This document shows, one piece after another, positions 1,928-2,545 of a stretch of 7,125 nt of DNA. Position 1 is the stretch's first letter, and the number at the start of each line of letters is the position of its first letter. The notes under the pieces are model-generated. The model did not search any database. It saw only the letters and a list, made by a program, of their open reading frames with translations, and was not told the origin of the DNA. The stretch lies in the IMG/VR virus record IMGVR_UViG_2675903606_000001; one strand, 5' to 3'. The position numbers were made by a program, and so were the translations under genes. The stretch is from a virus. Taxonomy: Monodnaviria; Loebvirae; Hofneiviricota; Faserviricetes; Tubulavirales; Inoviridae.

Positions 1928-2374
1928 TTACTCTTCGCCTGACAATGCTTTTTTCATAAACATTTTTGTACTGTAAGTATATGAACTTAATGCAGAAACT
2001 TGCCTTGCAAGTGCCAGAATATCTTGCTTCTCCAGTGTTCTGATGTTCCACACGATGAAATTATGCGCGTTCGTGGTTTCTTCATCAGTATATCCGTCCG
2101 CAGAAGTTATCAGCTTTCGCTCAGTAGCTTCTTCTTTAACATCAAGAGCATAGCCATAAGCTAAGGTGTTCAAATCTGCGCCAGTAATTTTAGCTATCTG
2201 AATTATATCGCTGAATTTAGGTTCAGTTTTGCCGGACGCTATCCTGACCAGCGTACTTACGCTAATGCCAGTCTTCTCGGCCAGTTCTTCATAAGTCGAG
2301 TGTTCCAGAATTGCCTTTTTTATACGTTCTGCTCTCTGTTTGTCCGCCATAACTTCATGCTCATTGTTGCCCAT
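1928..2374 (-). CDS. XRE-family helix-turn-helix transcriptional regulator, putative prophage repressor
   Basis: N-terminal Cro/C1-type HTH signature (…STYEELAEKTGISVSTLVRIASGKTEPKFSDIIQIAKITGADLNTLAYG…). ATG at 2372-2374 with GGAG 8 nt upstream on the minus strand. Divergently transcribed from the replication gene, an arrangement analogous to rstR-rstA of CTXphi. Confidence 0.85.
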   Translation of the reverse strand: MGNNEHEVMADKQRAERIKKAILEHSTYEELAEKTGISVSTLVRIASGKTEPKFSDIIQIAKITGADLNTLAYGYALDVKEEATERKLITSADGYTDEETTNAHNFIVWNIRTLEKQDILALARQVSALSSYTYSTKMFMKKALSGEE

Positions 2375-2419
2375 CTACTTCGCTCCATCTTAACAGTGGT
2401 TTTTCAATAGTCTGATTAC

Positions 2420-2476
2420 ATGCTCAGTTCTGACAATTTAAACATTGCAAATGTATTGACTGTCAGATCTGAGCAT
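2420..2476. promoter_or_regulatory. 16-bp inverted repeat in the repressor/gII divergent intergenic region (candidate operator and/or origin element)
   Basis: ATGCTCAGTTCTGACA (2420-2435) and TGTCAGATCTGAGCAT (2461-2476) are reverse complements with one mismatch, separated by 25 bp; the right arm lies in the spacer of the candidate gII promoter. Confidence 0.4.
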
Positions 2477-2484
2477 ATTACATT
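2456..2484 (+). promoter_or_regulatory. Candidate sigma70 promoter for the gII operon
   Basis: -35 TTGACT (2456-2461), 17-bp spacer, -10 TACATT (2479-2484), 61 bp upstream of the gII ATG. Hexamers only; an alternative TTGACA at 2514-2519 lacks a convincing -10. Confidence 0.3.
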
Positions 2485-2545
2485 GTGACCATTCAATCTG
2501 CTCACAAATGACTATTGACACATATTTTGATGGGTGTGACTACTT

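Follow-up and report, generated by a model that had tools for sequence, protein, structure and literature searches.

Gene content of the regulator region

The window analysed here is the whole of a 7,125-nucleotide (nt) inovirus sequence (IMG/VR record IMGVR_UViG_2675903606_000001), and our subject is its segment 1928-2545, in which a candidate repressor gene and the phage replication gene are transcribed away from each other. The repressor candidate (1928-2374, minus strand) encodes 148 amino acids (aa) from an ATG with GGAG 8 nt upstream, and gene II (gII; 2546-3598, plus strand) encodes a rolling-circle initiator, including the gene X region, that matches PF05144 (2e-72) and PF05155 (7e-33). 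The two genes diverge across a 171-bp intergenic region (2375-2545). An initial annotation, made from the sequence alone, had proposed an XRE-family regulator divergent from gII at this position, and the HTH_3, phrog_3557 and G2P-domain matches, together with the 171-bp spacer, bear this out.

The 148-aa protein scored 38.2 bits against Pfam HTH_3 (PF01381; gathering score 23, E = 1.4e-9), which places it in the XRE/HTH_3 family, and it matched the phrog_3557 'transcriptional regulator' profile end to end (residues 1-148 against positions 1-141 of 142, E = 6.9e-74); RefSeq labels the product of 1928-2374 a helix-turn-helix (HTH) protein (WP_001608238.1). Its N-terminal XRE HTH spans approximately aa 12-73, with VSTLVRIA (aa 39-46) as the recognition helix. 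In an AlphaFold 2 (AF2) model the five-helix HTH had pLDDT values of 85-89, and two C-terminal helices (98-112 and 116-145, pLDDT about 60-69) probably serve oligomerisation. The best Foldseek matches to this model were generic XRE HTH domains, those of SinR, P22 c2, 434 Cro and DdrO, all weak (E at least 1.8e-3), and the C-terminal domain received no assignment; a sequence search for relatives of solved structure gave only a marginal TrpR-like match.

The arrangement is not a matter of chance: wherever we retrieved this repressor family in an inovirus, its gene was transcribed away from the replication gene. Homologues of 46-76% identity are always divergent from the initiator in six inovirus contexts with unrelated partner initiators: gII of the Phage_CRI type in E. 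coli, in a metagenome, in Photobacterium, in Vibrio cyclitrophicus phages and in locus L044, and Rep_trans with RstB in Aeromonas. Among the deposited phages in INPHARED, the repressor was matched at the protein level by five V. cyclitrophicus inoviruses only, and the sole nucleotide-level match was for I2-2 gene I (gI). Comparative genomics of related prophages, which the initial annotation had suggested as a check, thus found the regulator kept beside the replication gene; it also exposed a mosaic, described below.

Segment 1928-2545 is likely to serve a temperate filamentous phage that integrates at dif as its immunity cassette, maintaining lysogeny, with gII as the predicted target of repression.

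Predicted operators and promoters

The intergenic region and the adjoining start of the repressor gene hold a cluster of 18-bp pseudo-palindromes with the predicted operator consensus ATGCTCA-N4-TGAGCAT. At up to 3 mismatches the window contains four such sites, against 0.33 expected per shuffled window, and all four (2-3 mismatches each) lie within 2357-2515. O1 (2420-2437, ATGCTCAGTTCTGACAAT) overlaps the -35-like box of a candidate repressor promoter, O2 (2459-2476, ACTGTCAGATCTGAGCAT) lies within the -35/spacer of P1, a sigma-70-like promoter candidate directed toward gII, and O3 (2498-2515, CTGCTCACAAATGACTAT) lies downstream of the P1 start site and is followed by a conserved TTGACA. These three are spaced exactly 39 bp apart, and O1 and O2 are mirror images that a repeat finder joined into a 57-nt palindrome with 27-nt arms of 81% complementarity. 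The fourth site, O4 (2357-2374, ATGCTCATTGTTGCCCAT), has 2 mismatches and lies over the repressor start codon, with equivalent sites in loci L042 and L044.

The codons of an 8-residue N-terminal extension, present only in phage versions of the repressor, form O4. Met9 (2348-2350) is invariant across the family and corresponds to the start of plasmid homologues. The extension codons may be conserved because they make up O4, and conservation of O4 may in turn partly reflect that of the N-terminal codons.

P1 (2456-2484, plus strand; TTGACT-17-TACATT) matches the consensus at 9 of 12 positions, and, reading by eye, we find TTGACA-N17-TAnnAT boxes in the equivalent place in L009, in L012 and, with less clarity, in L006. 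A candidate weak repressor promoter may run leftward (2436-2407, minus strand), with TTGTCA (2436-2431) inside O1, an 18-nt spacer and GACTAT (2412-2407), an 8/12 match. The TTGACA hexamer abutting O3 (2515-2520) recurs in L044 and in relatives from E. coli, Aeromonas and Photobacterium; we rejected it as a second gII promoter, as it lies 25 nt from the ATG and lacks a -10 box. The operator-plus-TTGACA arrangement of O3 is shared with L012, L042 and L044, and L009 has the same arrangement with its own allele-specific palindrome.

Recurrence in distant phages argues for the operator prediction. Four loci encode repressors 55-64% identical to that of the window with the same recognition helix, (I)S(V/I)STLVRI, and each carries a perfect or near-perfect operator palindrome in the intergenic slot: L006, from a metagenome, with 0 mismatches; L012, a CTX-like phage of Aeromonas veronii with Rep_trans and RstB, with two sites of 1 mismatch each; L042, from Photobacterium, with two sites of 2 mismatches; and L044 with 0 mismatches. 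The operator occurs almost nowhere else in these 6-kb loci, the exceptions being 3-mismatch sites at 1301 in L012 and 5091 in L044. A 76%-identical allele in L009 (allele A', the window carrying allele A), whose recognition helix reads VRTLVRIA, has instead the intergenic palindromes GGACA-N4-TGTCC and AGACA-N4-TGTCT. Additionally, across eight distinct allele-A intergenic sequences, in which 45 of 171 columns vary, the half-sites are variable at 3 of 42 columns versus 5 of 12 for the central spacers (Fisher p = 5e-4).

The initial annotation had called the phage possibly inducible, and this part of its reading found no backing. A scan of 2375-2545 with a LexA position weight matrix (PWM), built from 20 E. 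coli SOS boxes, found no credible box (best 6.1 bits, against at least 15.5 for those 20), and we rejected LexA/SOS control on this ground. Pfam found no Peptidase_S24 domain in the repressor candidate, and we likewise rejected an autocleavable repressor of the CI/LexA type. SOS inducibility is thus unsupported, since both the LexA box and the S24 domain are missing. An Rfam scan of the window detected no known RNA element.

Allele exchange at the regulator position

Regulators that differ strongly stand beside near-identical gII genes. Next to genes for gII proteins 96% identical to that of the window, the regulator is 98.6% identical in Yersinia pestis versus 40% in Klebsiella spallanzanii, where the repeats are different. 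In UM146-type prophages (gII protein 88.6% identical) a 60-aa phrog_2503 protein takes the regulator's place, and the repeats are of the GAACTCA type. The alleles of L009 and L017 also match phrog_3557. These comparisons suggest that immunity alleles are swapped as cassettes, each with its own repeats. Heteroimmune rstR alleles are known in CTXphi, and the window's allele series mirrors them. Among 5,426 complete E. coli genomes, our census sample, the slot held allele A in 99, allele A' in 1 and the 60-aa allele in 49, a sum of 149 set against 148 genomes with most of the gII-gV module (~2.7%).

Several hundred IncP-like conjugative plasmids (41-52 kb; E. coli, Salmonella and Klebsiella) carry a gene for a 123-aa regulator, located at 1903-2274 in pEC187_3 (our locus L041). 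The HTH-coding part of the repressor gene (window 2201-2335) is 91% identical in nucleotides to this plasmid gene, which suggests that plasmids and inoviruses have recently exchanged a DNA-binding module. The plasmid gene lies beside a resolvase, far from phage replication genes, and its product shares 62% aa identity and an identical recognition helix with the window repressor.

Probable replication origin, attachment site and prophage state

Immediately 3' of the repressor gene lies the probable (+)-strand origin core (1872-1917, plus strand), so that the repressor gene and its control region stand between the origin and gII. The core consists of a nick hairpin (1872-1900) and the inverted repeat GTCTCA-TTCC-TGAGAC (1902-1917), a putative binding site for the gII protein (gpII), and it aligns column for column, including the TAATA loop and second palindrome, with the annotated viral-strand origin of IKe and with the M13 (+) origin, placed by the known Ff origin sequence. 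By analogy, the nick is predicted between T1887 and A1888. The core folds as single-stranded DNA (ssDNA; dG -16, z -5.4) and is 84.6% identical to I2-2. Once this alignment was made, 'CTTAACAGTGG' at 2390-2400 in the intergenic region was dropped as a nick site. The second palindrome reads GTACCA-TTCG-TGGTAC in UM146, as if co-varying with gII.

At the left end of the window, 83-180 (plus strand) forms an imperfect palindrome of ~100 nt in which a dif-like site (85-112, GGTGCGCATAATGTACGACTCGTTATGT) pairs with an inverted partner. Its ssDNA folds into a long forked hairpin (dG -30.7 kcal/mol, z -6.4), and the region, 98.9% identical in nucleotides to that of YpfPhi, is a folded attP of the CTXphi type, the predicted single-strand substrate for XerCD. 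Features for ssDNA integration have been described in the attP of CUS-1 and Ypf (PMC3089051).

The window matches the E. coli SCPM-O-B-12142 chromosome at 99.8% identity. Two near-identical tandem phage copies of 9,078 bp stand in the terminus region of that chromosome, with the yde fimbrial genes and ydeP downstream of them; related prophages are located beside hipBA. Imperfect dif-like sites with an intact XerC arm mark the left end and the copy junction of the array, and a perfect 28-bp dif marks its right end. A CTX-type integrative element exploiting Xer (IMEX) is recognised by two inverted dif-like sites that fold into a forked hairpin and by dif at the prophage ends; the present element shows both, Xer dependence being read here from sequence. 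From the dif-bounded tandem copies and the CTXphi-type attP, the element is a temperate, Xer-exploiting inovirus, in keeping with the temperate relative of Ff and IKe that the initial annotation had envisaged.

Mosaic structure and its frequency

The window divides into blocks of different affinity. Positions 1-180 and 1849-3935 match YpfPhi and the NC-Ino prophage of E. coli NC101 at ~90-99% nt identity. In Y. pestis NCTC5923, which holds two tandem YpfPhi prophage copies 8,742 bp apart, the corresponding values are 98.9% and 89.8%, and the encoded proteins are 98.6% (repressor), 95.7% (gII) and 96.2% (gV) identical. The nucleotide match to both prophages stops at 3935, after gV, and tblastn and blastn searches with the window's gVII-gI found nothing in the Y. 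pestis and NC101 prophages. Thus, the window shares with the YpfPhi/CUS-1 group an orthologous regulatory-replication module (repressor, intergenic region, gII, gV and attP) and not the whole phage. The virion module of NC-Ino is different, with a DUF2523 protein, a 336-aa Zot and GspD. Positions 3936-7125 are instead 82-89% identical to UM146-type and L009-type E. coli prophages, versus 64-72% to I2-2.

By these matches the window is a mosaic, in which a YpfPhi/CUS-1/NC-Ino block (attP, origin, repressor, intergenic region, gII and gV) is joined to a Lineavirus/UPphi virion module, with the right-hand breakpoint placed at the gV/gVII boundary. The initial annotation had written of a lysogeny switch grafted onto an Ff/IKe-type virion module, and the word 'graft' proves literally true, because a YpfPhi-type block joins a Lineavirus-type module whose sequence (3936-7125) matches only UPphi/Lineavirus-type phages.

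The combination is uncommon. In the E. coli census, 99 genomes had the allele A repressor with its intergenic region and 47-54 had the Lineavirus-type virion module; at a coverage of at least 80%, the two occurred together in the source genome only. Of 15 IMG/VR contigs with this repressor allele, 8 carried YpfPhi-type virion genes, 6 the Lineavirus type and 1 was too short to tell; two of the 6 are genome-derived and identical to the window. We therefore read the window as an uncommon recombinant of two described phage groups. Relatives of both parental phage types have also been deposited as small circular 'plasmids' (NZ_CP128883.1, 9,565 bp, E. coli; NZ_CP140410.1, 7,938 bp, Salmonella). 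Such records are most likely replicative forms, with related modules replicating episomally.

Accessory genes and virion module

Two accessory genes precede the origin on the minus strand. The first, orf374 (190-1314), matches phrog_17621 (6e-200) and had no Pfam match. It occupies a variable slot between attP and orf140 that is a cargo hotspot, with other genes there in relatives: AbiJ_NTD4+DUF7014, abortive-infection-like, in NC101; the zinc-binding protein ECs_2282 in UM146; and a death-on-curing toxin in the replicative-form-like 7.9-kb 'plasmid' of Salmonella. The second, orf140 (1407-1829), encodes a conserved predicted membrane protein (phrog_4174 at 1e-84; membrane call made by eye from hydrophobic stretches) that is common to YpfPhi-type and UPphi-type prophages, with 95-97% aa identity in UM146, NC101 and most IMG/VR relatives and 86% in L037. 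PADLOC returned no defence match for either, and we rejected a defence function for both.

The plus-strand genes follow the Ff order (gII, gV, gVII, gIX, gVIII, gIII, gVI, gI) and all are intact in the window. After gV (3610-3927), encoding the ssDNA-binding protein (PF17426 at 1.6e-51), come gVII (3930-4016), gIX (4016-4111), gVIII (4141-4383), gIII (4430-5689), gVI (5689-6030) and gI (6031-7125), identified by Pfam and PHROG matches; in SCPM-O-B-12142, gIV follows gI. The gIII product carries the G3P pilus-binding domain (PF21443 at 8.5e-25), which, together with gene order and identity to IKe and I2-2, places the module in the Lineavirus/UPphi type. The virion and assembly proteins are 80-96% identical to those of UM146; gVIII, gIII, gVI and gI show 51-65% aa identity to IKe/I2-2, the short gVII and gIX show 50-70%, and M13 reaches only 24-53%. 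The initial annotation had described these genes as close homologues of Ff proteins; the Ff gene order holds, and the close identity is to IKe and I2-2 rather than to M13.

In the window gIII measures 1,260 nt versus 1,245 nt in the RefSeq genome, the 15-nt excess falling at Gly-rich repeats near 5060-5170 and probably representing one extra repeat unit. Variation in gIII repeat number is known from the UPphi paper (PMC7307601).

Proposed mechanism and alternatives

We propose that the C-terminal helices probably assemble the 148-aa XRE protein into dimers or larger oligomers, and that in this form it would occupy the 18-bp pseudo-palindromes. Because O2 lies inside P1 and O3 just past its start site, occupied sites would block gII transcription; lacking gpII, the phage would undergo no nicking at the adjacent (+) origin and no rolling-circle replication, and would yield few virions. 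A resident repressor would also keep incoming phages silent if they carry the same allele, so that the lysogen would be immune, and O1 and O4, over the repressor's own putative promoter and start codon, would provide autoregulation. XerCD would insert the phage at dif by way of the folded attP (83-180). We infer that the switch works like rstR/ig-2/rstA of CTXphi without being orthologous to it.

Several observations weigh against this scheme. Each operator in the window combines a strong half-site with a weak one, and a spacing of 39 bp does not correspond to whole helical turns. The promoters were assigned by consensus match only: the candidate for the repressor is weak, at 8/12, and P1, the sole 9/12 match in 1800-2650, is not in excess of the 1.6 expected from shuffles. 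The 57-nt palindrome made by O1 and O2 folds in ssDNA too (dG -15.3, z -3.6), so that it may have a structural role, and the predicted operator was not found anywhere in the 41-kb IncP-like plasmid despite the identical recognition helix. The repressor role of YPO2273, the YpfPhi gene that we equate with the window repressor by its slot, 'awaits experimental demonstration' according to a YpfPhi review (PMC4266046). YpfPhi persists also as an unstable episome (PMC4266046), and UPphi901 is shed from lysogens without induction (PMC7307601); because of the shedding and the episome, repression in these relatives would be leaky at best.

The palindromes at 2420-2476 could be read mainly as ssDNA structure, be it a minus-strand origin, a promoter-mimic hairpin or a gpII-related site, rather than as repressor operators. 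Ff minus-strand origins are promoter-like hairpins, the 27-nt arms are 81% complementary and fold in ssDNA, and L037 shows, by our reading, pairing-restoring changes on both arms. Distant phages with an identical recognition helix nevertheless keep the short 18-bp palindromes and not the 57-nt one, arm changes are uncompensated in most allele-A sequences, and conservation follows half-sites rather than stem pairing; moreover, the (+) origin is already placed at 1872-1917, and the annotated minus-strand origin of IKe lies upstream of its (+) origin, not between it and gII, with I2-2 assumed alike. We regard this reading as unlikely, and slightly more doubtful still is one in which the HTH protein, co-oriented with orf140 and orf374, regulates these leftward genes, or is a general mobile-element regulator as in IncP-like plasmids, instead of controlling gII and lysogeny. 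The 123-aa plasmid homologue, away from phage replication genes, speaks for it; against it, regulator and replication gene stay together in E. coli, Yersinia, Aeromonas, Photobacterium and Vibrio phages while accessory genes vary or drop out, the (+) origin hairpin separates the regulator from orf140, and the predicted operators lie on the gII side, overlapping P1.

It is very improbable that the element is a decaying or satellite-like remnant whose switch no longer functions. It does sit at dif, where CTX-type integration is irreversible in CTXphi, but gII-gI are all intact, the source genome adds gIV and two near-identical tandem copies, identical phages occur in two other genome-derived IMG/VR contigs, two relatives, of 9.6 and 7.9 kb, have been assembled as free circular molecules, and UPphi901 and YpfPhi yield particles. 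An immunity cassette acting on gII remains our preferred reading of 1928-2545.

The gII-gV module occurs in 148 of 5,426 complete E. coli genomes and in pandemic Y. pestis, in phages linked to host fitness. The predicted operator and the natural alleles (A, A' and the 60-aa type) offer a direct and cheap experimental entry to the YpfPhi/CUS-1/UPphi switch. Additionally, the mosaic shows the switch and replication genes passing as one block between two unrelated virion modules, and in this way probably from one receptor specificity to another. In other respects the cassette is what one would expect in this already described group of phages.

Comparison with known systems

A switch of this kind is already known: YPO2273 has been described as RstR-like at the rstR position (PMC4266046), and the sharing of modules between UPphi and YpfPhi is published (PMC7307601). 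Our literature search found no paper mapping operators or testing the repressor protein. What is new here is the predicted operator, its recurrence in four inoviruses (one from Aeromonas, one from Photobacterium and two without a host assignment) and the swapped-allele series.

YpfPhi, CUS-1 (from E. coli O18:K1:H7) and NC-Ino share with the window the YPO2273-YPO2274-YPO2275 module with attP and dif integration in tandem arrays. The YpfPhi intergenic region is 96.8% identical to that of the window, with all four operator-like sites kept except for spacer-base changes. YpfPhi and NC-Ino differ in having a DUF2523-type pVI, a 336-aa Zot and a 520-aa adsorption protein in place of the IKe/I2-2-like gVII-gI, and an accessory gene other than orf374. 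Resident YpfPhi gives partial protection against superinfection, and in Yersinia the literature points to RovA as acting on the YPO2274 promoter (PMC4266046). NC-Ino was recently listed as an undescribed inovirus resembling the Y. pestis element (PMC12803456).

The initial annotation had recognized the rstR/rstA arrangement of integrative inoviruses, which holds for position and fails for orthology. As in the RS2 region (rstR, ig-2, rstA) of the Vibrio cholerae phage CTXphi, an XRE HTH_3 repressor is divergent from, and immediately upstream of, the initiator; the short spacer between the two genes contains several operators (predicted ones in the window), immunity alleles change by cassette swapping, and XerCD/dif integration proceeds via a folded ssDNA attP into tandem prophage arrays, the CTXphi side of these likenesses being in part established knowledge. 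RstR of the El Tor allele, the one compared, shares 27% identity over 78 aa with the window repressor (pairwise E = 1e-6), essentially the generic HTH, and belongs to phrog_8 (5e-23), matching phrog_3557, the family of the window repressor, at only 2.8e-4. The window repressor is thus best regarded as an RstR analogue and not an orthologue. The initiators differ too, being of the gII/Phage_CRI type in the window versus RstA/Rep_trans in CTXphi, and unlike CTXphi the window has no rstB, no rstC and, in our scan, no LexA box for co-repression. The predicted O1-O4 and their overlap with P1 favour RstR-like binding of multiple operators with repression of the initiator promoter.

The UPphi paper describes Lineavirus-like dif prophages in tandem arrays with reverse open reading frames (ORFs) beside dif and spontaneous shedding, reports that only genes II and V, at over 85%, are common to UPphi and YpfPhi, and names no repressor (PMC7307601). 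UPphi (UPphi901; Shapiro and Putonti 2020) and UM146-type prophages resemble the window in their Lineavirus-like virion module, tandem dif integration, reverse-oriented accessory ORFs beside dif and gII/gV shared with YpfPhi, and differ in holding the 60-aa phrog_2503 protein (49 complete E. coli genomes) in place of the 148-aa XRE (XRE148) allele; UM146 is provisionally grouped with UPphi by its fit to the published description.

IKe and I2-2, the classical filamentous coliphages with N- and I-pilus specificity, resemble the window in gene order, in gVIII, gIII, gVI and gI (51-65% aa) and in PF21443, and I2-2 also in the (+) origin hairpin and gII (57%); unlike the window, both lack dif/attP, accessory genes and an XRE repressor. 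No phrog_2503 counterpart was found in M13. The premise of the initial annotation that Ff and IKe phages encode no repressor is doubtful for IKe. There (NC_002014, 6601-6798, minus strand) an intact, unannotated 65-aa ORF lies between the viral-strand origin and the gII promoter, divergent from gII, and matches phrog_2503 (E = 2.1e-7), the family of the 60-aa UM146/UPphi slot protein; I2-2 carries the same gene (2720-2918, minus strand) with one frameshift (E = 2e-15 after repair). Thus, 'repressor-less' classical lineaviruses may retain a regulator gene or its relic. We tentatively suggest, as a possibility short of an even chance, that the slot between the (+) origin and gII is an ancestral, exchangeable regulator slot across IKe, I2-2, UPphi and YpfPhi, filled by XRE148 alleles with their own operators or by the phrog_2503 protein with its own repeats. 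Swaps there would yield heteroimmune phages able to be co-resident or stacked at dif, the 65-aa reverse ORF of IKe would regulate gII, and IKe and I2-2 would be escaped descendants of temperate phages rather than the ancestral state.

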